In this document: positions 571-64,000 of the stretch, piece by piece | How the letters are laid out: each line of letters begins with the position of its first letter | How positions within the stretch are numbered: position 1 is the first letter of the stretch | NCBI GenBank assembly: GCA_008632985.1 | Contig: QPGO01000077.1 | Location: 1-64,000, forward strand | Origin: Psammoneis japonica | Lineage: Eukaryota | Reading direction: 5' to 3' | Length of the DNA stretch: 64,000 bases | Notes under the pieces: model-generated | What the model saw: the letters and a program-made list of their open reading frames with translations, nothing else | Told to the model about the DNA's origin: nothing | Databases searched by the model: none | Made by a program: the position numbers and the translations under genes

Positions 571-1074
571 CTTTGACGACTCGATGACAGGATCCATCGC
601 ATCGGTCCGCCACCATGGTTGTTGTTGGTCCAGCTGCAAAGCTGTGATGCTTGCCATCTTGATCGGCAAATTCAAAGTCGGCCTCACAATGTCGCTGCTC
701 CCTGCTTTCTTCCACATGGTGGTGCGTGGTGCTCTCTGCGATTCTGAAGCAGCCAGCTGCTCCTTCATCACAGGCAGCCCAACCTTCTCAATGCATTTGA
801 GTTGCTCATCGATTGCAGATTTTAGTGGGCATGCCCCATCAAACCCTGCACAAAGCTCCTGCAGTGTCTCTCTGGTGACACCAGCATGATCAGCGCAAGC
901 CAGCGCAACAAGAGAGCTGTGTTTTCTGACGTGAGCTGGCCTGGTGGCTGCTTTGCTTTTTCCACTGGAGCCACCACCCNTTCCTTCTGACAATGGGAGA
1001 ATGCCAAACTTCTTTCAAGATTAATGGCAGATTGGTTCTGGCCACCAAGCATCTTGCATCATGACACCACACTT

Positions 1075-1700
1075 TCAACTGTGATTCAGCGCATCTTTCA
1101 TTCGCTCGTCATCCGCTTTGATGCTGGACTTCCTGCAGCCACCAGCCATGTTGTCAAATGAGTCTAATGCAAAATTTTCTTTGTTGTCAAGGAGCTGCAG
1201 GACTCTTCCTCTGCTTTGCTGCTTCTGCAAAAATCTGCTTGGCTTTCTCATTGGGGAATGACTTTTCCAGGCATGGGAGCAAACCAGAAACGATGAAGCG
1301 GGCATTGGCAGAGTTGTGTGGAATGAAAGAAAATGTGACTGTGTCATCTTTCTTGCTGGCATTGGTTGTCATGGTGCAAAAATCAAGCAAACCATTTGCC
1401 TCACAGGAAATGATCAGTGAGCGGAGAGAAACGATTTTGACACCTTGCGGGGGGGGGGGAAGACCAACCCTGCAATTTTGCAGGATTGACGTTCTGCAGC
1501 ATGCGCTGTTTCCATGATGTTGTCACAGAAGTTTTTCTGATTGTTGCGGAGCCTCTTGCACTTGAACTCACAGTTTGCTGTTGCAAGGAATTTGTTTGCA
1601 GGGATGAAGTGTGCCCAAGTGTCAAGAGGAAACTCAACAGCCACGGATGAGCAAATGTCAGACACAGCATTGATGGCATGGTTGCAGTCTCTTGTTCATG
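1075..1700 (-). pseudogene. Degenerate coding remnant, possibly ORF1 of a non-LTR retroelement
   Basis: Broken frames with protein-like segments (FPLDTWAHFIP...RLRNNQKNF; DDTVTFSFIPHNSANARFIVSGLLPCLEKSF). Family call is from recollection only. Confidence 0.25.
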
Positions 1701-2582
1701 AGCAGCCTCATCATGAAGGATGCACGTGGGGTTCCTTCACTTGCACGCAGTCATTGTTGAGTTAAATCCTGGTCTTCCAGAGGCAATCACATGCCAGCGG
1801 AGGTCAGCTCTGCTCTTTTTCCATGTTTGGATTCTGTGAAATCCTCTTTGGTGGTGGTGCACCAGACTTGGGCACTCATCTGAGGGGATGTGTTCCAGCC
1901 GCACGTGACCCAAATCGTGCACAAAAACGACAATTGCGCGATTTTTGCGCGGTCTCTGACTTGCGAACGGAAGTGGTAGATTCACACACAAATTCGAATG
2001 TTTTGCAACACTGACAAGACTCGTGTGAGTGTTGCAGTGTCATTGTCACTCTGCTGTTTGTGTTTTTTATTTTAAACGAGTCGCAACACAACGGATGATT
2101 TTCGGCAAAAACATTGCCGTCATTTGGATGTCACACAAATGTGTCTTTCTACGATGCTGCTTGGCAGGTTTTCCACCTGCACAGAAATCTCAGCACAAAT
2201 CTTCTGACGTACAATCAGCATTGAGTCTGCTGAGGAAGTTTATGATGCACATCCCATGAGGACTTGAACACCCCACAAAAACCATTTAAATGTTCACATG
2301 TGCTCTGGACGCCTGCAAAAGTCAATCCGTCTAAGTGTTTCACATGAAAATGCTGCGTGCACTGCTAGAAGATACACAATTTATGTTCAAAATTGATTGT
2401 CGTTTTGTGCGTCACCGGGACCAGAACACGTCAAACAGCCATCCAATGTTGGGAGTTTTCTCAACATCTGGGGCAGCATGGAAATGAAGCCCATGTGAAG
2501 CTGCACTCAGCTCAGGTTGGGTCTTGTCAGTGAGTGCATTTGCACTGATTGTGGAGGCCAGAAAAATCAAAGCATGGTGCAT

Positions 2583-3051
2583 TGAAGCAGGCATCCCTGC
2601 CGTGTGGCTGCTGATGATGCCACTTTCCTGCGTCTGCAGGCTGTCCACAGCAAAGCTGATCCCGCAGAAGCATGTTGTAGAAAACATGACTCCCAGTGCA
2701 AGACCTGAGACAGGCTGCAGGAGTGACCCATGCGACTGAGACCAGCGTGACTGGCCATCGCGCACGTGACTCACCTTGCATGAAGGGTCTGCGCATTGCG
2801 CAGGATGCAGGGCCCTGCGCAGTGCCGAGCATGAGCCTGCGAATTGGCTCCACATGAGTGTCAATGAGTGCCACAAAAGACTTGTGCTTGAGTCTTTCCA
2901 ATGACTCATCATGCAACAAGAATTCTTGTTTCTTAGAAAAGAACACCATCGCACATTTGTGCTCTAACTAAAACAATCTCACAATTTTCACAACACCCAA
3001 ATCTATCTCTGCAGCGTTGCAAGCACTTGTTCCCCATTTCTGCATGGGTCA
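2583..3051 (+). repeat. 5' LTR
   Basis: TGAAGCAGGCATCCC...TTCTGCATGGGTCA; aligns along its full length with 4551-5065. Confidence 0.9.
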
Positions 3052-3099
3052 TGGTGACATTGCTCCCGGCAAGTGCAAGAACAGTTTGCTTGGTTGACA

Positions 3100-4287
3100 A
3101 TGAAGGTCGGACAAATGGTGCTTAGCGCATTCATGACACTGGCGGTCGTTCCACCGATTGCCTTTCAACGTCCGGTCCCCAGGGTTCTGAAAGAGAACCA
3201 AAGTCAGACGTGCAAACTGTGCACGAACCCAAATGACCCGGATGGTCCTACGCATGAACTTGCGGTCGCCTGCTTCTCGGCGCAGTCACCTGAAGAATGG
3301 CTCCTTGTCATAAAGGACTGTGACCGTGCATGCATCGGGCAGAACATTGCGACAGGACCCGGTGAATTTTTGCTCACGAGAAGGCTGTTAGAGGGTGATG
3401 CCCTTGCTGCCTTTGACAATGCAGCGGCGAACGAAAATGCAGAAATGGCAATGTCGTTGGCATGTTGCATGGCTGCTGTCACCAAAAGTGTTTTCCCAGA
3501 AAGGGCTGCATTGACACAGAAGCGCCATTTAAGGCATTTCATGCAAAAGCCGTTAGATGTCAAAATTCGTGAGCATGTCGCTTGTGCCATAGAAATCAAT
3601 GAGTGCACTCCAAAATTTCCACCAGTTGAAGACAATGGACAAGCTCCGCAAGCGCCATCCGAAGACGAGTTGGTTGATTTGTTGGAATGTGGCATTCCAC
3701 GGCTGTGGCAGTGCCAAATGAAGTTGCAAGGATTCAATCCTTTGGCACACACTGTTCCAGAATTTGTCTCATTCTGTGAGCATGTGGAAGAAGTTGAGGC
3801 TGCTGACAAGCTCATGGCCTCTGCCTCACCTCAAGATGACCCTGAAGACGCCAAGATGAAGTCAGCAGATGATCTGATTCCACGCAAACGATCAAGTTCC
3901 GAGAGTCGTACACCGAGCGAGTTGATGTCGGCAGCAAAGGAGTGAGTTTCGATGATGTCAGACGGAAAACGTGGTCACCCATGCATGCTTCACGGTGCAT
4001 GCAACCCCAACACTGAAGATTGTTGGTCTCTGAAACGTCAGGTCAAGAAACTCAAGACTTTGGATGCACACAGATCGGAGTGCAAGAATGCGCACAAGCG
4101 TGACACTGGCGCAAGCAAGGAAGAAATCAACATCATCATTGAACGAGCCACAAAAAATGCACTGAAACATGTGGCACATGATGACGCGAAGGCAGACAGC
4201 GAACTTCATGCCTTTGACAATGCACGCCTCTCTGAAGATTCTGATGCTGACACTGATGATGTGGCAGCAACGAGTCTCCAAGAATGA
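3100..4287 (+). pseudogene. gag: gag (capsid plus degenerate zinc knuckle), frameshifted ~3880-3950
   Basis: PEEWLL...IGQN...RRLLEGDALAAF...VFPERAALTQKRHLRHFMQKP...EINE...GIPRLWQ...QGFNP, then CMLHGACNPNTEDC. Positions expected to be Tyr read Cys or His. Confidence 0.8.
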
Positions 4288-4550
4288 TGGCCGACATGGC
4301 AGTGACCTGTGCAACCCCAGTGGCTTGGACAATTTGACAAATGTCCCAATGCTCCTGAGTGCAGCACTCACTTGTGCATGTTCTGCTGCAGGCCACACAT
4401 GGCAAAATGTCCAGTGAAATGGCAACAATGACAATGACATCCTTCGTGCATGAGAAGGCATGTGCGCTGGTTTTTTGGACACACCAACAATGTCCTTTTT
4501 CCAGCAGTGGGACCCTTCTGTCACTCGTGCGACCTTGTCACAGGGGCAAG

Positions 4551-5065
4551 TGCAGCAGGCATCCCTGCTGTGGCCGCCGATGATGCCACTTTCCTGCATC
4601 TGCAGGCTGTCCGCAGCAACGCTGATCCCACAGAAGCATGTTGTAGAAAACATGACTCCCAGTGCGAGCTGTCCGCAGTGATGCTGATCCTGCAGAAGTG
4701 TGTTGCAGAAAAACACGACTCCCAGTGCGAGACCTGCGATGGGCTGCAGGAGTGACCCATGCGACTGAGACCGGTGCGACTGGCCATCGCACACATGACT
4801 CACCTTGCACGAAGGGTCTGCACAGGATGTGCGCAGCACCGAGCATGAGCCTGTGAATTGGCTCCGCATGAGTGTCAACAAGTGTTGCAAAAGACTTGTG
4901 CTTGAGTCTTTCCAATGACTCATCATGCAACAAGAATTCTTGTTTCTTAGAAAAGAACACCATCGCGCATTTGTGCTCCAACTGAAGTGATCTCATGATT
5001 TTCACAACACCCAAATCCATCTCTACAATGTCATGAGCACTTGTTCCCCATTTCTGCACAGGTCA
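4551..5065 (+). repeat. 3' LTR with an internal ~63-bp tandem duplication (~4606-4731)
   Basis: TGCAGCAGGCATCCC...TTCTGCACAGGTCA; the segment ctgtccgcag...gactcccagtgcgag occurs twice. Confidence 0.9.
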
Positions 5066-8000
5066 GCATGATTGGTTTCCCTCAACAGTTTGGGCAAATG
5101 TGGCTTTAAAGTCCTTTTGTGGTTTCACACTGTTGCAGGGGGTGTTGCTTGGGGAAAAGATTGCTGGGTCTTTGCTGTTGGCAGCACAGGCAGCAATTTC
5201 CAAGGCGGAGTCTCCTTCATCTTGGAGGATTTTGAAGAATTCCAGGCACGCAAGCTTGTCGCAGCTCCTCATTCACATGAGAGTGGGGTTTGATGGGTTG
5301 TCCTTGATTTTGCAGTCATGGCAGAGGTGATGATTGCACTTGATTGCAACAGCCGTGTTTGCATTGGATTGCAAAAGGTTTCAGCATTGCAAGGGGGGGG
5401 GAGGGGGAACTCCTCAATGATTTGTGGCAGAGTTCTCATTGTCATGAGCCAAAGTCATCAATGCCATTTGTGTTGGCTTGTTTGTGCACATTTTCTGCAG
5501 AGGGTGCACCAGTGAGGAGCATTGCTGTTGCGCCATTGTTTTTGATGATGGGGGTGCAGTTGACCCTGGTGTGTTTGCTGCATGGCTTGAGGTTGGTGCG
5601 GGGAGGAGGCATTGTTGAGTGAGGTTGAGATGTTCCTGTGCAAAAGAGCAGCAGAAACCATGGGAAGTGTGCAGGACTTCAAAGCATTGTTGTCCACTCT
5701 GCCAAAAAGTGCAGGTCAAGCCCAACATGGTGATGCTCAATGCATGGCTTCTAATCATGCACAGCTGGGGTTCAGCAGTCAAGCTGCGGCAGGTTCTGTG
5801 CAGTCACGAGTCAAACACAGGATGTTTGAGCCTGCATTTGAGGTCTCTCTGCAGGGCTTCAGTGCTTGCATGGAATCATGGTGCTTAAATTGTGCAGGCC
5901 AGCCCAGCTGCATTGGGGTCCCTGAATGAAAATCAAGTCCAGCATCAGCTTCATCTTTGTCAAGATCACCTGTGCACTCATGAGCAATTTGGTGGTGATT
6001 TTCCACATGGTTGGTTGAAGACTGGCTGGGTCGAGCATGGCAAGGTGGTTGGCCTCCTTGGCTCATGGCACAGAAGAAGAAGATCAACCAATCCACAAGC
6101 GCACATGATGAGAAGTTTTTCTGCTCTCAGCTCATGGTGGAGACAGTGCCGAAGCTCCAAACTCAAATCCCAGAACCTCTCGTGCCAAACAGGAGTGTCA
6201 AAGGGGCACTTCTCTTGGCTGGGCTCCTTTGTGCTTTGTGGCTCAAAGCAGCTCCAGTGGCTGGGGTCCAAGAAGTCAACACACTGCTTCTCTGGGCTGC
6301 TGCACAACAATCCCCTCCTTCTGAAAATTTGGTGTCATAAATGCGTACGATCGTACGGGTTGAATGGTCTGTCCATCGAACGATTTTCGATTTCGGCTCT
6401 GGCACTTGTTTCCCATGGAAGTGGTGGGGTCTGCGTGCACTTCTACGCAATGCATGCTAAGAATGCTGCCAACAAATCACTTTTCCCAAGACACTTCATG
6501 GCGTTGTTGACCACTGCTCCTGCCTCACGCTGAAGCTTTCCTGCCTGTCCTTGGCATTGCAGCACTTCTTTTCATCACAATGGTTGTCAACATGAGTGAG
6601 TGTGAAGAAGAAATGGAGTCAATTGGCGAGGAAGACCTGGAGCCGCTTGACCACAATGAGGCGCTGCCGCCAAGCATGACAGCTCTGAAACATTTGAAGA
6701 TCGCCTGACAACACAAGGCATTTTACACGGAAGCTGACATGCCAGACAAAGGATGCAAATGCTTCCGAGTGGAAGAGCCAGAAATCTTTGCGTGAGAGCT
6801 TCAAAGTGCCAAGGAGCGGAAGGCAGTGGAACAATCAACCATCGCATTGTGCTTTTCTGATTTGTCTTGTTTGGTTTGGTCTGGCAAGTTCAGGCTTGCA
6901 CCATCAGATGATGGCAGCAATTGGTGGTTGAATTGATTTGCAAAACCATCTCAACAACTGCACTTCTGGTGTCTGGGTCTCTTTCATTGCATTGAAGTCT
7001 TTCTCATTTAAGGAATCATTGAACACAAGAACAGCCTTCACATGAACCAGAATGAGCAACTTGAGATTCAGGAAGTTGGACTCCTTTGCAAGGAAATGCG
7101 TTTTTGCAAGAGCGTCTGGGTCTTCATGATTTTCATCAAGCAGATTTTCTTGTCAACTCGGGGGGCTCGGGAGAGCTTCTTGTTGCCACAGTGATTCGAT
7201 GCTAACTCTTCTGCCGGCATCTGCCGGTGTGCCATCACCGACCATGCATCAAACCCTGCTGCATCTTTGCCATGCTTTGTTTTTAGTTCTGCGCTGTCCA
7301 CCATCAGCACAAGCCCATCTCCAGGTGCAAATTCTGCCCTGGGCTCAAGGCAGGCTGCAACAGATTCAGAAGCCTTTGCAACACCAGCCGCCAACACAGG
7401 TGTTGTCACTTTGAAGTTGGCAAGAGCATCTCACCAATGAGTCGCCTCGTCTTCCTTGCTTGTTCATCGTCTCCACAAAAGCGTTCACATCAGTGCCATT
7501 GATGGTGAATGCAAAAACAGACAGTGGCAAGGCCGTTCTGTTTTCTTCTGACATGAGGTGTTTGAGTGCATTTTTTGAGCTCATTGGGTCAGCCCCATTT
7601 CCTGTCGTCGCCGCAGGCAAGAGCACGGACAACATGTTCTTGAACATTTTCGCGACGGTGAGTTTGGTTTGATTGTCATTTGCAGCAATGTCTCCTTTTC
7701 CATTGATTGCTGCAAATCTAACTGGGGTGTGCGGCATTTTGCCATCCCCATCTGTTTCAACTGCTGCTTGCTCCGCAAGTGGCAGGCCATCTGTTCTGAT
7801 TGTTCTTGATGCGGTGCCTTCATTTTGTTTCTCCCAGAGGAACTCCAATGTTCATGACTTGGTGGGGTTCCTCTTTTTCTTTTTCTTGACAGGAGCTGGG
7901 CATTCAAACTCGACTTCACTTTTTTCCGATTCACGATTTCTCTTTTGGATGGTGCGAACTGTCTTGTGGCTGGTGACGCGTTGATCACAATGCAATGGGC

Positions 8001-9009
8001 TCTGGGATGTCTTTTCCGCTGGCAAACGAACCATGAGTGAAGACAAATTTTGCAGCCTCAAGGAGTCAGAGTGACAATGCACTCCTCCTCTTGCTCCTCA
8101 GCACATTCAACACCATGCAAGTGACATTTTCAATTGTCGTCGTTGTTGTCGTAATCCGCTGGAGAGTCGCAACGAGATGGTGCAGGGAAGAAAGAGTGGT
8201 TTCACTTCTCCACTTCATGATTTTGAAAATTTGATTTTGGTGTGTTTTTACATGCAAGTCTACAATCATCTGGGATGTTCTCAATCCAAGAATGCGAGCT
8301 TGGAGAGCTTTCTCAGGTCTCATGAGGGCCACAGGACAGAACTGGACATGTGATGGTGCACCCACAATGATGTGCAAACTCAGCAACGAACCTTCTGGCA
8401 GGGCCAGCTGATCAATCCGATGGAGTCAGTCAGAGTGCTTGACAACAAGGGCATGGAGTGCAATCAGAGGGAAGCACTGATGGTGTCAGAGCTGCAGATG
8501 GTTGCTCCAGTCTGGGTGCCCCCACACGTGTCAAGTTGCCCCAGCTGGGGGCGAGCCAACCAGCCGAGCTCGCATGCACACGGAGATCCAAGTGCCTTCC
8601 TGATGCACTGCCTGGATGACCACTCCAGAGCAGCACCTCAGACAGAATGCAATCAGAGAGCATCTGCCAATGAGCAGCAGCAGCAAGAGCCCAGTCAACA
8701 GCTTCACAAAACTGCCAGCGCGGCCAAATCACAAGCTGCCCAAAATGGATCTGCTGAATGTTCCAAAGCAAGGTTCTCCCACACACTTGCACCAGAGACC
8801 AGTGCAAGTTTCAGGGACAACCATCTTCACAACAATCAACCAAGTGCTGCTGAAACAATCTATGGTGGTCCCAACATGTGCCGGTAGACGGCCTGTGATC
8901 CGCAAAGCAACGAGCTAGAAATTCAGGGCGACCGGAAGATTGGTCGGTGGACAGACGACCCTGGAGCGAGGCAACGCCGCCAACGGCACACAAACCGCAA
9001 CCATGATGA

Positions 9010-11594
9010 ATGATGACTGATGCAAGCAATCGCGACGAGTGGCTCTCTCAGATCAAGGGGGAAATCCAGGATGAATTGGGCGCTGCATGGCGTGAAAGCC
9101 GTTGGACGGAGTTTATTGAGGAAGTATTGTGGTCCCTGCACGAGAATGATATCGTTGACGGAGACACGATTCGCACCGCCGAGGGCCTTATCAAGTGCGG
9201 AGTACGAACCAAGAAGCATCTGATTGCAATGGCCGGAAAGCCTCCCGACGATGAAAAATTGTCGAGAAAGCTTGAGGCGAAAGGCGTGTCTCTCGTCATC
9301 TGCGCTGTGTTGTTCAACGAGTACGTCCATGTGAAACAGATTGGTAAGTCTGACTGGCGTTGTACATATTGAATATGAGTTGTCAAACATACTGTACAGT
9401 ATCTCGTTCTTGGTTTCTATTGTTCCATCGCATATACGGTTTCAACTATAAAAACTCATCCTGATTGTGCTTGTCTATTCTATTCAAAGTAGCTTCACTA
9501 CAGCAGCAGCAGCAGCAGCGGACTGGCATGTTTACTGTCTTCGTGAGAAACCACAATTTGTCAGTCACGAATGTTATTAAGTTCCACGATAAGCGTTTTC
9601 CATCGACTGTGGGTGAGTTCTGGGAGGCGACAGGCCTTGAATGGACCGTTGACTCTGCGTGTGTCACGGTAAAAATGCTTATGGGCTGGGAAAAATTGAG
9701 CGACAATCCCAAAAATACAGCAAATTATGCTGAGGGTGACCCCAGCTTCGGGATTATGTTTCAGTTGTCGCCTTACCGTACTCCTACATCAAGTCCTATT
9801 AGCGACGAATACATCAGTATCCAGGCCGAGGAGGAGTCGAATTTTGCTGAATGTATCCAAAACTTATTTCGCGAGAATCCTTTCAATGCAGCTATACCAG
9901 AGCTGTACGAAGACGGGGCGATCCGTGGGTTACGATTGTTCTTCCAGCAGGGAAGAGAAGAAAGAACAAGGTCGTTGGCTTCGGAGGTGAAAACGCTTGC
10001 TCTGATATTTGCGATGCCTGGGGCAGGAAAGACTCGGACTGTACAAGAAGCAGCTCATAGTCTTGGTTTGGAGTATCACAGATTCAAGATGTCTAACGCA
10101 AACTTGTCCACGATGAGAGAGGTAAGGCAGTTCCTCTTGAAAAGGGTAGCAACACTCTGCGACTGCGAAACGAATGCGATACCTCTAGAGAGAAAGGTGC
10201 TGGTGCTTCATTTTGATGAAATTCAATCAATTATGAGAGCTCCACGTGATGACGGAGACAGAGATAATTCCCTTGTGACCACGCTGGCCAAAGAATGTGA
10301 TGCGTTGATTAACAAACATGGGGAGAACCAACGTTCGTGGCTCAAGTTTGTAATGACAGGCACCAATATCTTCTCGGACACACAGATCAATGTGGGCAGT
10401 CAAGTGAAAACAGAATTGATACCGATGGGGGGCTCTTTTTCTCATGACTTTGTATGCCAGCTTGCGAGGAAATATAATCTCATGCCATTTTTCGCTGAAG
10501 ACAACGAGAAATATCTGGAACGCTGTCGCCACAACCGACGCTTTACCGAACGATTTTTCTGTGCTTTGTGGGACAAACGAGGCGAGGGCATCGCTGATCC
10601 CTCCGTTGTGGATGATGCGTATCACTCGGCACTCAGTGCAATGAGTCGACAAATTGCTGGAAACATGGGAGGAGAAACTATCAACGTATCTTCAGTTGCA
10701 TGCACTGTCTTCGCAAAGATTCTGGATATCAACTCTGAGATGATAGTCAACGGCATCGCAATACTCAAAAACTGTTCCATGACTGAGAAGTCTTATATTG
10801 CGGGTGGCGGGTTCAACGTGAAGGAAATGATGGGGAGCGATATTTCAATCTTCTACCCCGCTGGATGTGTTCTCGAGCTCCTTGAACGACTGCTTGCCCG
10901 TACGAACTCACGACACAGCTGCAACACTGTTATATCTTTCCTCCGCGTCAGTGGAGTCCTTCAGTTTGGAATCAAAGGCCATTTGTTTGAATGGCTGGTG
11001 GCCTACGATATTTCGTCTCCTCGTTCAGAATTTGATGCGCTGATGCCGCCTAATCGCAAGCGTCTCTCGGAATGCATTGGCGCAGTTCCACTCTCTTGCC
11101 CAAAAGTCTATGAGAAGATTGCCGGCGGTGACACAACGAACTATACATGGATCGTTTTGGACCAGCACAACGCTCATCAAAATCGATGGATAGACTTTGC
11201 ATACTCAATTGAAGTCCCGGCTGGTTTCAAGGCTGCGTACGTCATAGTGGAATGCAAAACGGGATACAAGAAGGACCGAGCAAAACTGAAGGGAAACTGT
11301 GAAACGTTCTTCGCGAAGGCTTCTGAGTATGCAGGAACTAAATCGGACTTCTTCTTTATGGCCGTCTTTGCATGTGAGCACGAGTTCAATCATGAGAGGT
11401 ATGCAGAACATCCAAGAAACTTGGAGACTGCTGTTGCGGTGGTTAATGAGGTGTCTTGTCCCACAATCGCCCGTTTTCTTTGCGCCGACCACAGCAATTC
11501 AGGTGACGTAAACGCTCTTGTCCACGAACTCACATCTGCGGTGATTCGTGATGATGGGGCAAAGCCGTACCCCGGTGGTACGCCGTGTAAATAA
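9010..11594 (+). CDS. Crinkler/RHS-like protein: helical N-terminal header, polyQ linker, P-loop NTPase, C-terminal PD-(D/E)xK restriction-endonuclease fold; 2 exons (9010-9343, 9493-11594), ~811 aa
   Basis: Phase-1 intron GTAAGT...TAG (9344-9492) joins the frames exactly. Walker A MPGAGKT (~10014), Walker B LVLHFDE (~10200), GHLFE helix (~10977), WID (~11187), VECK (~11247). Normal TA/CG content. Confidence 0.75.
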
Positions 11595-11899
11595 CTTTCT
11601 CTCTCGAGGCACTACGGGCATCGTCGCACGTGTTTACGGCAGTGATGGTTCGACGAAACAAGCTCGTTTGAATGCCTCAGTACCCTTGATGGTGTCCGTT
11701 GTCTGTGGCAACTGGCAACGTGTCTTATTCAACTGAAACTTCTGCCCCGGTGTAACTCGCTGACTGCTTTTTTGGGACTTTTACCTTCCGCTTGGGATCC
11801 CACACAGCAGCTGCTTTAGTTTGTACAATTTTGGGGCGTGGGCGACTCGGTAAAGTAGTTTATGCGAAAGCTTCATCCAAGGATGATAGGAGTGCGAAT

Positions 11900-12224
11900 C
11901 CTGGAATGGCACCGGCACCTAGCTAGACTCGAACATAGTAGAGATCCAACTCATCAAAATGCACTAAATGATGTATGTTGAAATCCACTACTATCCCATC
12001 TATCCCTCTGCCAATTCACTGTATGGCACTTTTCGTCACCATCACAGCACCCTGTACAACAGTCGCAAGTGTTGATTGGATTGGATTTTCTTCAGGGACC
12101 GCAATCTGCTGAGCAGGCGAATTTCGGAGGGGACTTGCCCTTCAAACTCATTGATGTGAATCCATGCGATGTACAATTCACTCAGTTCTGACAGCTCCGT
12201 TGCTGAAAGACAATTTTGGAGCAA
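11900..12224 (-). pseudogene. Leucine-rich-repeat gene fragment
   Basis: LSELYIAWIHINEFEGQVPSEIRLLSRLRSL fits the plant-type LRR consensus LxxLxLxxNxLxGxIPxEIGxL; truncated by the adjacent repeat block. Confidence 0.5.
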
Positions 12225-13129
12225 TCACCTGATGATTGCCCTCTGTCCTCTGTCGCTCGTTCTCATCTTCTCTTGTGGCTGATGATGCACTCCCTGCAGA
12301 GCTCTGTCTCTGGTTGGTTGTGGTGCAAGCCACAAGGAACCAGACCTTGAGCAGGATCTTGCATCTTGGAGGAGCCCAGAGATGCAGAGCTCCAGCAGGA
12401 GAGCTCTCTCTGCTCATTGACAAGTGAAGTGCCATTGATGAAAAGAAGAAGTGAGCCACCAGCTGGTGGAGAAGTGGCTTTGAACTAAGTGCAGAGTTAA
12501 AGAGCCTGTTGAGAATGGAAGGAGGCAGGGAAGCAGCTGCAGCAGTGGAAGAGTGGCAGGGATGCATGATGCAGCATGTGGGGCATTTGGCAGAAGGGAC
12601 AGGAGATGAGTCAGTGTGAAGAAAGGAGGCAAAGCAAAGTGCATCATGGAAAGATGGTGGCTGGGTTGCGCCCAAGCATTTGAGTGGTGCCCATTGAGAT
12701 GGAGAGGCAGAATCATTCATCACTGACCCTTGACAGCAATGAATTGAAAGAGGTGCTTAGAGGCCATGTGGCAAAAGAGACTGTGAAGATGATCCAAGGA
12801 TGCCTTTTTGAGAATGGCCGGACAAAGAATCAAGACTTGGTCAAAGATTGTCACAGACAGCTGGGCAGACAGGAAGAATGTGGCCAATTGGCTCAAACAA
12901 GTCATGAGCCACATGAGCTAGACTTGGGGGCTTGGACTTCTGGCAACCATGGATCACAAGAAATTGGTCTGTCTGACAGCAAACATGATCCACATTGTTG
13001 AGGTTGGTTCTTGAAGAGTGAGAGAGAGAATCAGAGAGCCTGTTGCAAAGGAATTGTTCAGGAAAATTTTTGGCATCCATGAAAGCTTTCAGTCAATCAA
13101 ATGGGGGGCTTCAGTGGAACCCAGCATGA

Positions 13130-15510
13130 ATTTACGGACATGCTTCACCGTGTTGCAAAATTGACAGCATGATGAAAGCAAGCACCATGGAAAGCCACAA
13201 CAGTTTCTGACCACATTTGACAATTGGAAGAAGACTCTGGGGCCTGCCAAATGACAGTTGTGCTTTGACACATCTGACAACAAGTTGTGCCAGTTCAATG
13301 TCAGAACTGAAGTTGTTCATTGACCGCAGCTCTGCGAAGCATTGCAGGACAATTGCCAGTGATTTGTGCAGCAATTTGGCAATTGATTTCCTGTGCTTCA
13401 CCATGGTGAACTTGGGAATTGTCCAAAACAGTTCCTTCAACAAAATTCTGAACAAAAGTTTCTGTTTGCTTGCATCAGAAAACATGTGTCTGGGACAAGC
13501 TTGATGACATCACTGTCTTTCCAATTGTCATTTGGATGTTCTCCGCCACTTGCCAGTTTCACCATGCTTTCACCATGTGATTTCAATTTGCAACATGGCA
13601 AAGTGCATGGTGTGGAATTTCATGCTGTTTGAGTGCCACAGTCCCCCATTTGCCTGATTTCAAAAAACTGAAAGTGTTTGTGGCAGAAAGCAGGCAGCCA
13701 ACAAAGGAAAAACACACGCATTGCATGAGAGCACAAAAACTCAAAATTGTGAGAGTTGAGAACTGTGCTGAAAAATCTGTGTAGAGTGCAGCAGATCTGT
13801 GCACAATTTTGCTTGCAAGATCAGAGCAAGATTGCCACTCTAACCAAACAGCCTTTCACAAGACTGGACATTGGTTGGAGCAGATGCAAAATTTCTGCCA
13901 ACAGAAAACAAAAAGGAGGCCTTCCCTCAATTGATTTGGATCAAACAATTGGATTGAACCTGATGTTGGCTCCAAGTTGCAATTTTGAAAGAGAGGAGTT
14001 GTGAGTGGACACAATGTGCAAAAATGCATGTGCAAAAGGACACACAAGAAAGGGCATCAGAAAATTGGAGAAATTTTGGCGGGAAGTTTTTCTGTTGACA
14101 TCAGAGGGGAAGTTTTTCTGTTGACATCAGAGGCCACAACACAGTGGTTTCCACTTTCCTTTGTAAATTTTTTAATGTGCATTGTCAAGATTTTCAACAA
14201 GCAGAATTTGAAAAATGCCAGCAAAAGTGCTCAACAAAATGATGCGGCTGTTTTGTGCATTTCATCTGATGTCTCATTGACTTTTCTTGCACAAGCTTCA
14301 ATCAAATGCATGCAATGTTTGATTTAATTGGGATCGAAATCTGTTTCTTGTGATGCACAATTTGGTTTCCTTTTGATTGCAGTCAATTTGAACTTGGTTT
14401 TAATTTTGTCCTCCTCACTCACGTGCGTGTGTCTTCACACGTGTGCAGTCTGCTGCACATGCAGTGCTTCACACACGCACATGACCCACCTTCATTTTTC
14501 TTCATGTTTCCCAGATTTGCGCAGCCTGTTGGTCCACAGCATTTTCAGCACATTTTTTACATGCACAATTTTCTGCACACTTCATGACAGCACACCCTCT
14601 CCCCAAAATTTGAAAAACAAGAGCGTGCGCTTGTTGTGACTCACATGGATCCCACATGTGGTCGCAAATCTGCAAATCAACAACTGGCCATGGTGGTGAA
14701 AGACTTTGCTCCATTGGCTGATGACAGTGGCTCAACATGTGGTGAAACCTGCTGTCCTTCTGGTTGGTCAAGATGGGTTTTGATTCGGGCGCAGCTTGAG
14801 TTTTGTGATTGCGAGTGTGCTGTCATGAATCTGTGGTGTCCAAAATGCTGAGCTGCTTGCATGTTGTTGTGTGCACGCATGTCACAAAGTTGCTTTTCTG
14901 CAGTGTTGGCATGATCGCACATGTCAGAGTTTTGCACCCAGAATCATCACAAGTTGCCACAGATGACACTCTTCAAACAAAGCATGTGCAAAAAGAGGTT
15001 CATTGGTTTTTGATGTGTTTGCCAACAATGCATCCTTCTTCTCCACTTTCCATGCCCAGATCCAGAAAGACTGCAGGCAGTGCTGCTTGTTCCTGCAGCT
15101 CTCAGAATCACACGCATGAAAAGTTCTTTGCCATGCATGACACTCTTCAAAAAAGGCATGCTCAAAAAGAACTTCACTGGTTTTTAACATGTTTGCTTGC
15201 ATTGCATCTCTGTCTTCTCCAATCTCCACATCCAGATCCAGAAAGACTGCAGAGGCAGAGACTTTGGAGGCAACCCATTGGAGGTTGCCTGAGTTGTCAG
15301 GCTCATTTTTGAAGGCTTCCCAAGTCTCTCTGCTGTTTCTGGTCCACACTCTAAACATGTTGTCGATGAACCATCCGCAGCATGGGAGGTGCAGGGCAAA
15401 CTCAGTCATTGCCACATGACTTTGTTGTTTGTGCAGCACCTTGCACAGTGTGGCACACATGTGGGCAGCGCTTGTTCCCACAGCTGTTCCAGCAAGTGCA
15501 TTCTGTGGCA
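13130..15510 (-). mobile_element. Penelope-like retroelement reverse-transcriptase remnant
   Basis: GTAVGTSAAHMCATLC, CCGWFIDNMFRVW (the YxDD region), WEAFKNEPDNSGNLQW, VFLDLDVEI, THQKPMNLFLH match PLE RT motifs GTAMG, RFIDD, FLDL and TYQKPMNLYLY. A ~175-bp internal duplication (~14960-15260) and a possible thumb fragment (13132-13485) are present. Confidence 0.7.
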
Positions 15511-15619
15511 CTCAAGATGTTTTTTGCTTGCTCGCATGCTTTCTTTCTGTGTTTTCTTTGAGTTGCAGGGGTGGAGCTGGGTGCTTGACATCTTGCACCA
15601 CACACCGGCATCCATGTTG

Positions 15620-16110
15620 CTCTGGAATCAGTGGTGCTGGATGCACCAATGCACTGGCAAGTGTGTGTTGTGGTTCATGTTAGTTCATCCACATTGTGCT
15701 CTCACAATGCTGTGCTCTGCACTTTTTGGCAATGAATGAGGTGGGTCAGATGAGCAACAGCACTTCTGCTGCAAACCCACCTGCTCCAGAATCAGTGGCG
15801 TTGGATGCACTGGCAAGCCAATGTTGCCATTCCTGTGGGTTGTGTTGGCTCATCCATGTTGTGCTCTCACAATGTGTTTTGCTCTTTTTGGCAATGAATG
15901 AGGTGGAGTGGAGCAGCGGCACTTCAAAAAATGGAACAGCAGCTCCTGATGCAAACTTGCCTGCTCCAGAATCAGTGGCGCCGGATGCACCAGTGAGCCC
16001 ATGTTGCCGTTCCTGTTGGCAGTGTTGGTTCATCCACATTGCACTCTCACAATGCATTCTGCACTTTTTGGCAATGAACAAGGTGGCTGCCATCAGCAGC
16101 ACTTCAAGAA
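15620..16110 (+). repeat. Three degenerate tandem units of ~165-180 bp
   Basis: gaatcagtggYgYYggatgcac...ctctcacaatg...ctttttggcaatgaa recurs at ~15625, ~15789 and ~15969. Confidence 0.85.
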
Positions 16111-17640: not shown

Positions 17641-17879
17641 GAAATGCATGCACAACTAGAGTGGCAAAACACTCCGACTCTCTAGAGAGGCAACTCCCAA
17701 TGGTTTGGTAGAATGCTGCACGTTGTGGTGTCTATCATGGGGTTGGCAAAACAAGGATGTTTTCCAATTTTGTTGTGTCAACAAGGGATCTCTTGTGAAA
17801 AGATGCAAACAAACTCCAAAGATGTGTTACATTGTTTTTGTTCAGCAAAAAGGACTCTGAAATTGGAGCACCTTTGGCT

Positions 17880-23215: not shown

Positions 23216-23240
23216 GTAGCAAGAAAAAAAAAAGACGACT

Positions 23241-23280
23241 GAGCACATTCACCTAAACTGCAACAAAAGTTTATCGTACG
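23241..23280 (+). repeat. ~40-bp motif, copy 2
   Basis: Matches 531-570; lies where normal TA content resumes. Confidence 0.85.
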
Positions 23281-57803: not shown

Positions 57804-58199
57804 TTTGTGAGCGTCAAATCGGAAGTAATCCTGACAAATCTCCTTATCATCTGAGGAGCAAATGAGATAATGATAGCAGAGCGATGTCTGTAAAGAGTCG
57901 CCACCCAATCCGATTGCCAACAAGTCTATCTGAGGTCATCGGTCATGGTTCAAATTGTGACCGACTGTTACCGGTAAATACCGGTACGACGCGTACGACC
58001 AGCGTTGTCGGTTGCTTGCTTGTCCGCTTGTCGGTGCAACACCGACCGTAACGCTTTTTGAAGCAGTTGTTTTTGGTCCTGTCGCGACTTCTCCTCTGCT
58101 TTTCAGCTTGCGTCTTTGCATTTTGGTTATCCCGCAAAGAACGAAACACAACACAAGCACACACAACAGCCGAGCGTGCACTGTGTGTGGTGTTTCTAT

Positions 58200-58930
58200 C
58201 AAAAACACAGTGGGGTGGGGGCGGCCATCTGCTCTCTTCGCAACAAAACAGGCTTTTGCGCCAGAAATGACTCATGAAGAGAGCAGATGGCACCACCCCA
58301 TCTCTGCTGCACTCTCCTGGATCCTCTGAAGTTGCCATGGTTGTGGTGTTGTAAGTGTGGCAACATGATGAATTTTCAGATGATGAAAATCACGTGCCAA
58401 TTGGGTCAGATTCCAGCCAAAAAGAGTGGCAAAAGGGCAAGTGGCTTTGCGCCAGCTGCAAAATTCCCGGATCCGGTCCAGAAAAAAAAAAAAACAAGGC
58501 CCATTTTTTATTTGAAGTGTGCAACACATTCTCTTTTGACTGTGTTCTGTGCCCATGGTCAGTGCAGCAGTGCCCCCCCCCCCACCCCCCCCAAAGGGCC
58601 ACTGCTCTTTCTTTTTTGCGCACACCTGAGGGCCCTGCGCTCCATTGTCTCCCATGGCGATGCACTTGCCAGAGCAAGAGAGGCATCTCTCACAAACTTT
58701 AAAGCATCCAAATCAGCTTTCCACAAGGTTTGGCAGCCCATTTTCTTTGAAAATTGATTGGCAATGAGTGGGAAACAAGCATGGAGAAGAGGTTGATTGA
58801 AGGCTTTGGAGACTTTGTTGTTGGCAAAGCGCATGATCTCTGCTTTGCACAGGTCACAAATGCTGCAAGCTGCAGCATTATGGCAACGTGGGCCTCAGAG
58901 TGCCTCTTTTTTTGCAGTGGAGCAAGGAGA
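58200..58930. other. Short TpA-depleted block 6, probably a non-autonomous insertion
   Basis: TA and CG depleted within an otherwise normal intergenic region; starts with an inverted repeat. Confidence 0.7.
58211..58300. repeat. Inverted repeat / hairpin
   Basis: ccatctgctctcttc (58225-58239) pairs perfectly with gaagagagcagatgg (58276-58290); the stem extends with tggggtgg / ccacccca. Confidence 0.8.
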
Positions 58931-59575
58931 GGGTGTTACAGACCTTCCTCTGGTAGGAGGAGAGCCACCAGTCTAGCAGGACGGCATTCCTCACAACGCG
59001 CAACATGAATGACAGCACCGCCCGTGTGTTTTATCACATCACCGTCTGCGGGCGCGAAAGGATTCTTTACTACCAAGCACTTTTTAGTTCTCTAGTTCTT
59101 ACAATAGAAGTTAAAAACATAGTCAAAATCACAGTTGGGAAGTTGCTGACGCAACGAGCCCTCATTCTTGTTCTTTCGCGGGCTTTTTGGAAACCGTGCT
59201 GACGTTTGTCGCGGAACGAACTCTTGACAGAAATCAACATGCCAGTGACCATGGCCAAAAAGTCGTTCCATTCAAGAGTGTTGTTGTTGTCAGACCATGA
59301 CTCTTCGACTCGAACCCTCCTCTTCTGGTGGCATCTCGTTGGCCACAGCAGTAGCAGTCATCGTTGTACCGGTAGCCCGGATGGACGTCGAGTCTTTTGC
59401 TAGTGCCGCAACCCGATGGATTGTGGACTCGGTGCAGCAGGCTTTCCAACCCACAAGATGATCTTCGGTTATGCAACTAGCGGTGGTCGAATACGCGCCT
59501 TCGTTACTCCTCCTCCCTTGACGACAAAGACAGTGAAAGCTACGATGATGGAGCAAAAAGAAACAATTTGATTCC

Positions 59576-60211: not shown

Positions 60212-60897
60212 TCAACCCCTATTCTCGGACTTTTCGCTCACCCACAAGGCAACCGACCCACTCGAACCTCTTGCTATGCAAATTTCATTGTCCACGTAGT
60301 GCCACAAGTACGTATTCGGTCGTTTCTCAAACTCCTGCGAAGTCTTACCCTCCTTCTTCTTTTTCTTGCCTCCACGCAAAAATCTCTCAACGACTTGACG
60401 AATGGGACCAGCTTCATTGGAAAGATCCAAGGTTGGGAGATTGACTCCAAACAAGCAAGGCTGTACTGTCGCAAACTTCAGAGTCATTTTGCAAGGCCCC
60501 TTCATTTCGTAGCTCCCCTCAAAGAGGGCCGCAACGGGGCCCAATTGGAGCTGGTTGGAAACGCTCCATCTTGGCGAAAGCTTTGGACTCCCGTGACGGG
60601 TAGAAAACGTCCCGTCTCGTGCGCATTCATGGAAAATTGGGCCCTCCAGGGCGATCCCGCTGTCAGCCGTTCCCGGCAATCATTGTTCTCGTCCGGACGT
60701 TGTTTCGTCAGCGCGGTGACAGACGCCGAAAGGGCCTCCACGTCTCGCTCGGCAATCTGCTCAAGAATCGCCCTCGTACTTCCCGTCGTACCTTTTGCAG
60801 CAGTAAGCGACAGTGCCGCGAGGGGAAAGAGAGCGAGAACGAGCAGCAGCAATGGGAGGATGCTACTACGGCGGAGTGTTGTCATCGTCTGCTCCAT
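60212..60897 (-). CDS. PAP/fibrillin-like protein with signal peptide; apparent 1-nt deletion in a T run at ~60559-60561
   Basis: Hydrophobic leader; WRAQFS...RFLPVTGVQSFRQDGAF joins SNQLQLGPVAALFEGSY...YLWHYVDNEICIARGSSGSVALW if one T is added. Confidence 0.7.
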
Positions 60898-61169
60898 AAT
60901 ATCTAGCCCTACTCTACTAAAACTTGGAACTGCTCATCAGTCATCAGCGTTCTCATCATTCTGATTTGGCAAAAACCCACAAACGCACTGATTGACAGAC
61001 TCTTTCAGGACAGTTCTGCGCTGCCTGCGTGCGCTGCCGGCATTTTACTGCATGAGTTCACAAGAGTCTTCGGCCAGCAGCTGGCTGGAGACATCCCCAT
61101 AGTCACCGGTGTGATGTGTCGTGTGCACTGCACATAGAAAAGGTGACCAAACACCATCTGCAACATAAT

Positions 61170-64000
61170 GTTTGCTAAGAAGGGTGACCTTGCGATGTGT
61201 GCCAAGCACACCGCAACACCACATGCTGCAAGCCATCCAAAGCAACAAGGTCGCAAGCCACCCCATCTCGCACACCTCAAAGCATTGCAACCTCTGCTCA
61301 AAATGGCTCTTCTTCAAGTGACCTGCAACCTCTTGCAACTTCTCACTGTTCTTGTTGCTTCTCTTTGGAAGTGACCTCTTTGGCAACAACCAATCTCTTT
61401 GAACTGCCCCAGCGCCGTTGCTTGTCACCGCAGGATCGTGAGGTTTGGCTTGGCTCTGGCTTTGCAATGCGCACTTTCTCTGTGTGCTGACAAGAAAGAG
61501 ACATGGGTGCAGAATCTCCTGTGCAACTGGCAAAAGGTCAGCCCTCTTTGTGTTGACCCCTGCTGCAGTCTTAAAAATTGCTGGAAGACTGTGAGAAAGA
61601 ACAAGGCTGGGCAGCCAAAGGAGGCATCCTGTGGGCTGTCTTAATGTCAACTGCAGCCAGCTTGGAAATCTTCTTCTGGGGATGACTTCTGACAGAGTTG
61701 AAAAAAATGTGCATTTGAGGTGACTTGCATCACTTGGTCAAACCAAGCAGCAGCTCAAAATGCACACATGACAGTCAACAAGGCTGTTGTGTTTTCCCTC
61801 TCAAAAGAGGACAGCACAAAATTGGCAGACTCATCTCTGGATGTGTTCCAGCCCCAGATGGGGGGCCATGTGAGACACTGACCCACAGAGCTCTGCATGT
61901 GAGCTCTGCAGCAAAAGCAACTGTCAGGTGATGAACAAATCAATGATCACCAACAGAAAGAGAGGCAATTTGCAATTGAACAAACTCACCCATGCTTGAA
62001 GTGCATCATTTGTGTGGTGTGCCCAGGTGTTTTCTTCAGACACCAAAGGGAGCACACCCAGCCTGATTTTTTGGCATTCTCAGAAACGGTCAAAACAAAC
62101 CCCTCTTTACTTTGGCTTCACAAAACTGGGCATGTGTGAAACAATTTTGTAAAAGAGCACACTTGGAAATGTGCACATGTGTTGTGGCTGCCACATGACA
62201 AAAAAAGTTCTGTGACAGTCCAGTGCTGCGAGGCAGCCCCCCACCTGCCAGAGCTCAAACGCATGTCTGGAAACTTCCTCTTGAAAGTGGTCATGTTTTG
62301 GGGGAGTCACTCAGATGTGAGCACCGTTGCAAGTGTGATCCAAACCAACTTGTCTGAACTTCACCCCCACTTGCCAACCATTGGTTGCATGCCACAAAGT
62401 TTGGCCAATGTGTCTTGCTGCTCTTGGCAGCCCTTCACATGAGAGGAGAAACTGTGGAAGACTTGTTGGCCAACCCATTCATGGGCCATTTGGCAGCATC
62501 CAATGAGGCATTTGTCAAGTGCACTCCTCACAAGCAAGAGGAGCATGAAGATGAAAATGACTTGTTGGGGATTCAGCTCATGACTCTGGCTGACAATGGA
62601 CAAAAGGCACACAAGATGCTCCTTCAGAAGAAGAAAATGTGAAATGCTCCCAGTGAGACCAAGGAGAAGATCTTGGTGCCAGAAGCTGTGGCACTTAAGA
62701 AATTTCACAGCAGCAAAAGCAAAAAGGGAGACAACTCTCAGAACAAGGACAAAAAGGACCAGAAAAAGGACAAGGACCACATGCACATGGAGAGGGAAAT
62801 GAAAAGCCAAACAAGTGGCTCTGCTGCCACACCAAGCCCAAGACAACTTGTTTGACTGAAACCTGCACCTGGATCTTCAGTGCATTTCATTGATGCAAAT
62901 GGATGCTGGTGGCAAATGCTTTGGCAAGTGATGAGCACATGAACCCAACAAATGCAAGGGTCATGAGAGTTCAAACTAGAAAAGGAAAGAGGGAAGAGGC
63001 AAGCCAGCAAGCATCTAAAGCTGGCCAAGGCTGGTGTGTCCCCAGCTCAAAAACTAAGATCTGGTGAGGAGTCTGAACAATGACCATGTGAGTGCACCCA
63101 TGATTGTTGCAAATGCTCAGCTGCTGATCATGAAAACAAAGGCAGCAGCTCCTGCCCCCCTGATGAGCTGCTGGCTTCAGCTGCACAATTCGTCATGCAA
63201 GCAACTTCACAACCTCCAGTTGTCTGTTGCTCACTCTTCTGTGAAGTGTCAGATGCATTCAGAAGCAACATGGTCATCACTTGGGCTCACTCAATTGTCA
63301 CACTCATCATCGTTGTCTCATCCTTTGTCTGCCTTTTGCATGACAGATGACTCTCCACATTGAAAGCCATGGCACATGTGGTCACAATGGCTGTTTGTCA
63401 GATGTCAGATTGTCATGACATCATGGTTGCAGAAGAGTGCAAGAGCAACAATGAGAAAAGTCTTTTGATGTCAGACAGCACACCTTGTTGGAAGATGAGT
63501 TGAGTGCTTCATTGATTGACTCACTCAGCAAGATGCTGCATGCAATCAATCCCAAAGAGGGAGAAGCCAATGATCTTCACAATGCATCAAAAAAATCACA
63601 TGAAGCCAAATGGCAATTGTGGAGCCTTGCACACACGTTGTCAGTGACCATCACCAATGAAGAAGCCACACACACACACACACGCACATGCACACACATG
63701 GAACTGCAAGATTGTGTTTGATGCAGACTCAGGATCAGCTGGAGTTGACAGCCAATGCTTGGGACACATCTCTCATGTGGCTGAAGATTTCCTCACAGGC
63801 AAAGTCAGAGATGGCAACAGAGTGACAAAGGGATTGAGAAGAACATGGATGAAAGGCATCAAGGCTGGAGCACTGCTGTGGAGGTGGAACAATGATGAGA
63901 GAAAGACACGTGTGTCAGCCCACAGTGCCATGCGAAGATGCAGAGAGAATTCAAGCTGATCAAATGAGCCAAGTGTGAAACCAATTTGAAAGAAGTGACT
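61170..64000. other. TpA-depleted repeat/TE block 7
   Basis: TA and CG both rare. Confidence 0.9.
62400..64000 (+). mobile_element. Degenerate diatom Copia (CoDi-like) retrotransposon: gag and start of pol protease region; runs off the window
   Basis: RGETVEDLLANPFMGHLAASNEAFVKC...KQEEHEDE...QLMTLADN...NAPSETKEKIL (gag, with Tyr->His/Cys); VFDADSGSAGVDSQCLGHISHVAEDF...NRVTKG...GALLWRWNND (protease region). Confidence 0.75.

Follow-up and report, generated by a model that had tools for sequence, protein, structure and literature searches.

Sequence composition of the locus

We analyzed a 64,000-nt stretch of the genome of the diatom Psammoneis japonica (contig QPGO01000077.1, positions 1 to 64,000; here, the window) in which relics of mobile elements, other repeats, and one pseudogene lie in blocks between ordinary host genes (Table 1). 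The blocks are marked by a near absence of the dinucleotide TpA. A two-state hidden Markov model (HMM) of TpA density segmented the window into six TpA-poor blocks (33.2 kb) and ordinary segments (30.8 kb). Across the whole window, the observed/expected (o/e) ratios were 0.29 for TpA, 0.63 for CpG, 1.46 for CpA, and 1.47 for TpG. The pooled blocks contained 130 TpA steps and had ratios of 0.06 for TpA, 0.33 for CpG, 1.72 for TpG, and 1.73 for CpA, compared with 1091 TpA steps and ratios of 0.53, 0.96, 1.19, and 1.17, respectively, in the pooled ordinary segments. A sequence-only reading of the same DNA had described seven nearly TpA-free blocks, and we recovered all of them with coordinates that agree within ∼250 bp; as drawn there, their 33,182 bp hold 132 TpA steps, where the flanking rate would give 1,165, and the 20 TpA steps counted by hand in 12241-16600 were confirmed exactly. 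The CpG depletion of the same blocks, on which that reading laid little stress, is equally real.

All 1-kb intervals lying fully within the six long blocks (block length, 2.1 to 11.2 kb) had a TpA ratio of at most 0.20 and a TpG/CpA ratio of at least 1.54. Per kilobase, blocks and ordinary segments differed in TpA (3.9 versus 35.1), in CpG (19.6 versus 56.4), and in TpG plus CpA (215.7 versus 147.5). The total of pyrimidine-purine (YpR) steps per kilobase was nevertheless constant (239.2 in the blocks and 238.9 in the ordinary segments), which fits transitions confined to YpR steps. The G+C content was 0.487 in the blocks and 0.485 outside them. TpG and CpA counts were approximately equal in five of the six blocks, and thus both strands appear to have been struck alike. 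Over the six reading frames of the blocks, stop codons were very uneven (TGA, 1668; TAA, 128; TAG, 72).

The borders of the blocks were sharper than 200 bp. For instance, the TpA count was 0 in 35196-35395 and 16 in 35396-35595. The outermost 200 bp at four borders (564-763, 8914-9113, 33277-33476, and 37099-37298) had 0 to 1 TpA steps and a normal CpG count (10 to 16), so the TpA-depleted zone is slightly wider there and the borders of TpA loss and CpG loss are not identical. Block 2 was the sole block with a strand asymmetry between TpG and CpA (1287 versus 1096; P = 1e-4).

Table 1. Features of the window, with observed/expected (o/e) dinucleotide ratios where available. LTR, long terminal repeat; ORF, open reading frame; MDR, medium-chain dehydrogenase/quinone-oxidoreductase type.
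Feature	Position	Strand	Ratios or size	Basis and remarks
TpA-poor block 1	564-9113		TA o/e 0.09, CG 0.49, TG 1.63, CA 1.73	HMM; holds LTR-gag-LTR relic
TpA-poor block 2	12056-23216		TA o/e 0.06, CG 0.28	HMM; holds tandem repeats and MDR pseudogene
TpA-poor block 3	26501-31770		TA o/e 0.06, CG 0.39	HMM; holds two long coding-like ORFs
TpA-poor block 4	33277-35395		TA o/e 0.02, CG 0.30	HMM; holds repeat copy B
TpA-poor block 5	37099-40375		TA o/e 0.03, CG 0.18	HMM; multicopy repeat family
TpA-poor block 6	61177-64000		TA o/e 0.04, CG 0.12, TG 2.02, CA 1.67	HMM; runs past window end
Small seventh TpA-poor block	58198-58936		0.74 kb; TA o/e 0.12, CG 0.28	Too short for HMM, yet real
5' LTR-like direct repeat	2583-3051	+		Self-BLAST; starts TG, ends CA
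gag-like ORF	3058-3942	+	295 aa	0 Tyr, 13 Cys, 7 His
3' LTR-like direct repeat	4551-5065	+		Self-BLAST; TG..CA ends
Tandem repeats in block 2	14954-15252, 15618-16137, 20592-21040			Self-BLAST
MDR pseudogene	16625-17641	+		In-frame stops, at least 3 frame changes
Two long coding-like ORFs	27797-28756, 28896-29891	-	320 and 332 aa	1 Tyr in 652; no family assigned
1.2-kb repeat, copy A	30590-31725	+		69% identical to copy B (33655-34888, block 4)
Unmutated island with FkbM-type methyltransferase gene	31771-33276 (ORF 32244-33497)	-	TA o/e 0.60	Pfam PF05050, E = 3e-11
Unmutated island with PhyH-type dioxygenase gene	35396-37098 (ORF 35698-36903)	+	TA o/e 0.66	Pfam PF05721, E = 7.5e-20
Internal direct repeats of block 5 family	37862-38402, 39598-40145

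Contents of the TpA-poor blocks

Block 1 carries the hallmark of an LTR retrotransposon, with terminal direct repeats that have TG..CA ends on either side of a gag-like ORF (2583-5065). An HMMER search with this ORF found 1523 relatives at E ≤ 0.001 (top E value, 1e-56; 44% identity). One of them, P0156, has a weak match to a retroviral-type aspartyl protease downstream (E = 1e-4), just under the curated Pfam cutoff. No ORF of block 1 had a Pfam match to reverse transcriptase (RT) or integrase, and only ∼1.5 kb separates the repeats; the element is a gag-only retroelement relic, either truncated or nonautonomous. Searches of the window gag ORF against viral contigs and of the relatives P0175 and P0197 against metagenome contigs gave no matching loci.

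The pseudogene in block 2 was recognized by its matches to structures in the Protein Data Bank (PDB), 3pi7_A and 3iup_A, with E values of 2.9e-6 and 1e-5 for the ORF at 16993-17307 and of 0.006 and 0.0044 for the ORF at 16799-17107. Its Pfam match to ADH_zinc_N (E = 0.0011) is under the cutoff. A search for sequence relatives of the MDR ORF came back empty, as did one with the coding-like ORF at 27797-28756, although the word index used is probably unsuited to such mutated sequences. Neither of the two long coding-like ORFs of block 3 matched a Pfam family, also when the three read-through minus frames of 26501-31770 were searched; they could belong to a transposase family that is either undescribed or heavily mutated.

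We scanned 268 of the 270 ORFs of at least 70 aa that overlap the blocks against Pfam (of the two left out, one contains an N at position 980 and the other was scanned separately). Only 4 of the 268 had a match at E ≤ 0.01, all below the curated cutoffs and none transposon related, and the six read-through frames of 61177-64000 (with X at stops) had no Pfam family. The sequence-only reading had named five sequence types in the blocks. The gag-like protein and the MDR pseudogene stand, whereas nothing in the Pfam scans of the block ORFs and read-through frames backed the names Copia gag, Penelope RT, and Zisupton transposase.

Copy number was assessed from contigs of sequencing run X1. The block 5 family is multicopy, with summed contig word depths of 161 to 495 over four bins (37340-40007) compared with ∼62 elsewhere. 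Most blocks are single copy now at the 31-mer level in X1 and may have been repeats when they were targeted. The targets could equally be set by chromatin state as by repetitiveness, the trigger that the term "reverse RIP" of the sequence-only reading implies. The hypermutation is limited to the LTR-gag relic, the repeats, and the pseudogene; the adjoining host genes are spared, and the TpA ratio of the intervening genes (FkbM, PhyH, HIT, ANAPC11, Raptor, and listerin-like) is 0.5 to 0.66.

Direction of change in the gag-like protein

The direction of change was read from an alignment of the gag-like ORF with the best 150 of its 1523 relatives. At the seven columns with a Tyr consensus, the window had Tyr at none and Cys or His at five, and all four columns in which Tyr had a majority of at least 50% were replaced (H, C, H, and C). 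Phe was kept at seven of eight Phe-consensus columns (Fisher P = 0.0014 versus Tyr), and the Pro and Ala columns were retained. Of 11 Arg-consensus columns, 6 still had Arg and 5 had changed to Cys, His, or Gln. Based on the column frequencies, 6.6 Tyr and 3.0 Cys were expected, and 0 and 12 were observed. These replacements are precisely those made by TAY→TGY/CAY and CGN→TGN/CAN, and the replacement of Tyr by both Cys and His indicates that both strands were affected. In the MDR pseudogene, one aligned site shows Tyr→Cys relative to the PDB matches, which are too distant for column counts. The sequence-only reading had reported Cys or His in place of Tyr in each of its families; we verified this for the gag-like ORF and at the one MDR site.

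Eight of the 150 relatives, all from public data (P0175, P0130, P0165, P0197, P0236, P0265, P0141, and P0260), had Cys or His at three or more of the seven Tyr columns (P0265 at three of six aligned), and they are at most 43% identical to each other. Two of them, P0197 and P0165, had Cys or His at four of the seven Tyr columns each and kept Arg at 11 of 11 and 9 of 11 columns, respectively, which means that the TpA process is separable from CpG decay and also occurs elsewhere. The occurrence of the Tyr→Cys/His pattern in these public relatives hints that a base-editing defense may be widespread.

Sequence context of TpA loss

The survival of TpA within the blocks depended strongly on the neighboring bases: 0.00 for ATAT, 0.01 for ATAC/GTAT, 0.05 for GTAC, 0.17 for CTAG, 0.40 for CTAA/TTAG, and 0.73 for TTAA. 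A multiplicative model, in which hits on the two strands are independent and their probability depends on the nucleotide 3' of the adenine, fits all 16 xTAy counts (likelihood ratio test versus uniform loss: χ2 = 170, df = 3, P = 1e-36). Under this model, the per-strand retention was 0.84 for TAA, 0.46 for TAG, 0.165 for TAC, and 0.077 for TAT, that is, a target preference of 5'-T-A-Y on each strand (TAT > TAC > TAG >> TAA) with TTAA largely spared. The rule holds in each of the six blocks; RTAY had 6 survivors where ∼377 were expected (98% lost), and YTAR retention ranged from 0.09 to 0.53. The fit of the model suggests that the agent reads one strand locally (5'-T-A-Y) and not a duplex palindrome, and the flank rule, together with the overall pattern, looks enzymatic. 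The per-strand 5'-T-A-Y preference is new in this analysis.

Divergence between duplicated copies

Eight paralogous pairs, all within the blocks, were pooled to examine how copies diverged after duplication. They differed by 371 transitions and 156 transversions. The most common dinucleotide difference was a CA-versus-TG doublet (79 cases), which arises when one ancestral TA or CG changes differently in the two copies; there were also 56 CG-versus-TG/CA and 9 TA-versus-TG/CA differences. For example, the two LTR-like repeats are separated by 42 transitions, of which 39 fall at YpR steps, and by 3 transversions, and copies A and B of the 1.2-kb repeat differ by 169 transitions, 62 transversions, and 32 CA/TG doublets. 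A mixture model based on flank context assigned 54% (95% confidence interval, 28 to 79%) of 54 doublets to TA ancestors and rejected both a pure-CpG origin (delta lnL, 10) and a pure-TpA origin.

An A:T→G:C change at TpA on both strands, in dead mobile and pseudogene DNA, had been proposed from the sequence alone, and it is borne out by the Tyr→Cys/His replacements, the YpR-centered divergence, the CA/TG doublets, and the constant YpR sum. The further proposal that the change was imposed after insertion holds at least partly, given the copy divergence and the doublets, whereas the TpA loss of the LTR element may largely predate its insertion.

Between the window and contigs of run X1 (k-mer depth, ∼62), there were 2 differences over 26001-29013 and 8 over 30153-38014. 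In the TpA-poor blocks, 11 full-depth differences separate the window from X1, and all are transitions (8 at CpG, 1 at TpA, and 2 elsewhere).

Relation to known hypermutation systems

Targeted hypermutation as a genome defense is well established only for fungal repeat-induced point mutation (RIP) and animal deaminases. The TpA-specific form has been reported once before, in a 2026 preprint on mutation-accumulation lines of the chlorarachniophyte Bigelowiella natans (Mettrop et al., bioRxiv 10.64898/2026.01.13.699255), to the main text of which the following statements refer. The sequence-only reading knew of no described system with this signature, but the preprint describes exactly that signature; it was the sole match in our literature search, which returned nothing on TpA-specific hypermutation for diatoms or any other stramenopile. 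In the B. natans lines, two integrated viral regions took 231 of the 302 nuclear mutations; 230 of these were A→G or T→C, and the preprint places all GC-biased ones on TpA. They arose in integrated single-copy DNA during clonal growth at a rate of ∼6e-7 per site per generation, ∼1000-fold over background. Its authors suggest that a DNA adenine deaminase of the ADAT2 kind is responsible.

Like the B. natans process, which affects integrated DNA of nucleocytoplasmic large DNA viruses (NCLDV) and virophages, the changes seen here are TpA→TpG and TpA→CpA on both strands and only in integrated foreign or mobile DNA. The long-term footprints are also alike: a scarcity of TpA with an excess of CpA+TpG in clustered intervals, where the low-TpA coding sequences of B. 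natans are enriched in RT and DDE domains. Our blocks lie within the limits used to define that footprint, i.e., a Rho of at most 0.43 for TpA together with one of at least 1.52 for CpA+TpG, in clusters of three or more successive 1-kb intervals. By analogy, the TpA process in the diatom is the same phenomenon as that measured directly in B. natans.

There are also differences between the two cases. The host here is a stramenopile and not a rhizarian, though both belong to the SAR (Stramenopiles, Alveolata, and Rhizaria) group, and the targets are retroelement relics, unassigned repeats, and a pseudogene instead of giant-virus and virophage insertions. The depletion in the window is near saturated (0.06, compared with a Rho of 0.45 for the B. 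natans NCLDV region) and is overlaid by CpG decay; the words "CpG" and "diatom" do not occur in the preprint's main text. Neither do "trinucleotide" and "flanking," although the supplements may hold flank data that bear on the 3'-neighbor rule seen here.

RIP in ascomycetes is likewise a transition hypermutation with a dinucleotide context that permanently inactivates repeated and mobile DNA. It depends on premeiotic repeat recognition and on RID/DIM-2. However, RIP changes C to T mainly at CpA and thereby creates TpA and AT-rich isochores, while here TpA is destroyed and G+C is constant. The TpA excess and AT-rich DNA typical of RIP are absent from the blocks (TpA, 0.06; CpA/TpG, 1.72; G+C unchanged).

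The CpG loss in the same blocks (CpG ratio, 0.12 to 0.49) resembles the decay of CpG to TpG/CpA by deamination of 5-methylcytosine (5mC) in vertebrates and plants. Its signature is present in the overall depletion (0.33 versus 0.96), in the replacement of Arg by Cys, His, or Gln at 5 of 11 columns, and in the 56 CG-versus-TG/CA differences between copies, and CpG methylation of transposable elements in diatoms is the topic of PMC9998398. CpG decay is, in contrast, unable to remove TpA.

Proposed mechanism and alternatives

We consider it probable that the blocks are mobile-element relics and one pseudogene of the nuclear genome that were rewritten by two separate context-specific transition processes. 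The first would be a TpA-specific A:T→G:C hypermutation that turned TA into TG or CA, on each strand independently, to near saturation. The second would be ordinary CpG→TpG/CpA decay, the signature of 5mC deamination in methylated transposons. Between them, both self-complementary YpR steps would collapse into TpG/CpA and leave G+C unchanged. We infer that a host enzyme recruited by the chromatin state of silent or foreign DNA attacks the TpA step; deamination would convert the adenine of 5'-TAY to hypoxanthine, whichever the strand, and G would be fixed at replication. A TadA/ADAT2-like adenine deaminase reading 5'-T on one strand is a tentative candidate for this chemistry, one that we put at somewhat below even chances. 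The expected consequence is an irreversible inactivation of the element through the loss of Tyr codons, TATA-like elements, and AATAAA-type signals. TAA and TAG would be destroyed, with TGA arising only from CGA.

Several observations weigh against this interpretation. The scanned ORFs of the window included no gene for a deaminase, a TET/JBP enzyme, or a DNA methyltransferase. The tRNA substrates of eukaryotic ADAT2/3 mostly have G or A at position 35, which mismatches the 3' preference observed here (T > C > G >> A). The direction of change comes from one protein family, and the process in the diatom is known from its footprint, whereas the B. natans rate was measured directly (main text of the preprint). 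Run X1 and the assembly share one sample, and no platform is recorded for X1, which makes the run supportive but not independent. Just 1 of the 11 differences between the window and X1 is of the TpA type, so no ongoing TpA mutation is seen, though few TpA targets are left. Finally, the nine doublets of the LTR pair, the youngest element, are nearly all explicable by CpG (∼7 expected from CpG and ∼1 from TpA), and the LTR element may owe much of its TpA loss to a source copy that was mutated before.

The main alternative is that the attacked base is thymine, which we regard as unlikely but as deserving some weight. In this scenario, a TET/JBP-type dioxygenase would oxidize T at R-T-A in silenced DNA to 5-hydroxymethyluracil (5hmU) or 5-formyluracil, which mispairs with G and leads to T→C. 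Oxidized thymine is mutagenic toward C, and A→G cannot be separated in sequence from T→C on the other strand, where the flank rule reads A > G > C >> T before T-A. To our knowledge, however, 5hmU is not known in diatoms. The sole dioxygenase-like gene found in the window is of the PhyH type, not TET/JBP, and the small TpC shift (o/e, 1.03 versus 1.14) is explicable by TCG→TTG decay alone. A precedent exists within the SAR lineage, since a dinoflagellate TET/JBP enzyme makes 5hmU that silences transposons, and in C. cohnii 5hmU is said to take the place of thymine preferentially in the dinucleotides TA and TC (PMC11572971, including its Discussion). This is a base modification, though, and the passages of that paper report no mutational signature of 5hmU.

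It is very unlikely that the elements were edited away from the chromosome during their replication cycle, at the RNA or cDNA stage as with APOBEC or ADAR on retroelements, and arrived TpA poor, with the block borders being insertion borders. The sharp borders, the 8 of 150 public homologues with the same Tyr→Cys/His pattern, and the impression that most TpA loss in the LTR pair is older than the LTR divergence are in keeping with such an origin. Animal deaminase editing (A→I by ADAR and C→U by APOBEC3) is indeed a hypermutation with a 5'-neighbor preference, but its enzymes are metazoan, its substrates are RNA or single-stranded cDNA, and its footprint is strand asymmetric. In the window, TG and CA gains are symmetric in five of six blocks and Tyr was replaced by Cys at some columns and by His at others, where single-strand editing predicts asymmetry. 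A frameshifted host-type dehydrogenase pseudogene and noncoding tandem repeats are affected equally, and in-place duplicates (tandem units and LTRs) differ by TA-versus-TG/CA sites and doublets. ADAR prefers G on the 3' side, whereas TAG sites are hit poorly in the blocks (retention, 0.46, versus 0.08 for TAT). Strand symmetry and the nonretroelement targets led us to reject RNA editing of the ADAR type, which favors a 5' U (Discussion of the B. natans preprint, bioRxiv 10.64898/2026.01.13.699255), and the main text of the same preprint places the B. natans mutations in integrated single-copy DNA.

Error-prone repair of heterochromatin by a polymerase eta-like enzyme with a WA→WG bias, one of the candidates in the sequence-only reading, is a poor fit and highly improbable: polymerase eta makes A→G changes at TA and AA motifs, but ApA is not depleted (1.26 in the blocks versus 1.19), ApG is not enriched (1.00 versus 0.96), and the strong dependence on the 3' base is not a polymerase eta feature that we know of. 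Equally hard to credit is the view that nothing was mutated, the composition being intrinsic or selected or else a base-calling or polishing artifact on modified DNA, to which the common sample of the assembly and X1 and the unrecorded platform lend some room, since the changes at conserved Tyr and Arg columns are those that single transitions would make whereas Phe, Pro, and Ala columns are preserved, the YpR total is constant, copies differ by CA/TG doublets, X1 k-mer contigs (depth, ∼62) agree with the window, and an artifact would need a consistent choice of TG or CA at each site, a per-strand flank rule, and a stop at gene borders.

The TpA-poor blocks are thus real, and they belong to a very recently described kind of feature and not to a categorically new system. 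Of value here are the new lineage, the saturation, the flank rule, and a possible comparative-genomics route to the enzyme. As a second case, in a stramenopile and near saturated, the window indicates that the process is not peculiar to one alga or to giant-virus insertions, and that it co-occurs with CpG decay and yet is separable from it. The sharper target rule (T-A-Y per strand, with TTAA spared) provides a test for any candidate enzyme. With a diatom as host, the question can be pursued where genetic tools exist. The second case also makes phylogenetic profiling possible, in which genes common to both hosts and absent from footprint-free algae would be candidates.

More speculatively still than the deaminase chemistry, Stramenopiles and Rhizaria might share an ancient chromatin-guided defense by DNA base editing, with a strand-local 5'-T-A-Y editor beside cytosine methylation. 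If so, silenced mobile and foreign DNA would end up as "TG/CA deserts" that are neutral in G+C and disabled for good, and the defense would mirror fungal RIP in function. There are also practical consequences. Because the two processes cancel in G+C, which is equal inside and outside the blocks, GC plots miss the blocks and other GC-based scans do not see them. Moreover, with the loss of TAA and TAG, long open frames persist in dead DNA, and the blocks mislead gene finders.

Host genes and other observations

The ordinary segments hold host genes for an AAA ATPase, HIT, FkbM, PhyH, ANAPC11, a cyclase-domain protein, a listerin-like E3 ligase, Raptor, and glutathione peroxidase. The best relatives of the Raptor gene have 59 to 66% identity; the best named one is from the diatom Fragilaria crotonensis, followed by Nannochloropsis and Phaeothamnion, which by itself points to an ochrophyte stramenopile, most likely a diatom, as the host and not to B. 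natans.

A second sequencing run, X2, behaves like cDNA. One X2 contig aligned to four pieces of 41253-45448 (minus strand) and skipped 42608-42906, 44050-44136, and 44510-44600 (299, 87, and 91 nt). The cyclase-domain gene at this position has three short introns; introns are thus few and short. Other X2 contigs covered 32021-33360 in the FkbM island and 35658-36950 in the PhyH island. Over 26001-46000, X2 contigs lay almost wholly on normal segments, and the depth in the TpA-poor blocks was 0 in nearly all bins, although absence of coverage does not equal silence. Traces of X2 (≤0.8) on the blocks occurred in two bins that straddle borders.

A direct repeat of ∼45 bp (∼85% identical) lies just left of block 1 (531-567) and just right of block 2 (23238-23273), and two of the differences between its copies are TA/CA and CG/CA. 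The 22.7-kb interval between them may have been inserted or duplicated as a single unit, together with the AAA-ATPase island at 9114-12055, which is unmutated. The assembly has a single N within block 1, at position 980.

Runs of (CA)n or (TG)n with at least four units numbered nine in the TpA-poor blocks (e.g., 63667-63698, 39444, 39642, and 40206) and two in ordinary DNA, both of the latter ∼10 to 40 bp ahead of the small block at 58198. Such CA/TG microsatellites may have been seeded by the hypermutation. X1 contigs contained length variants of the CA unit at 29550 and 40253.

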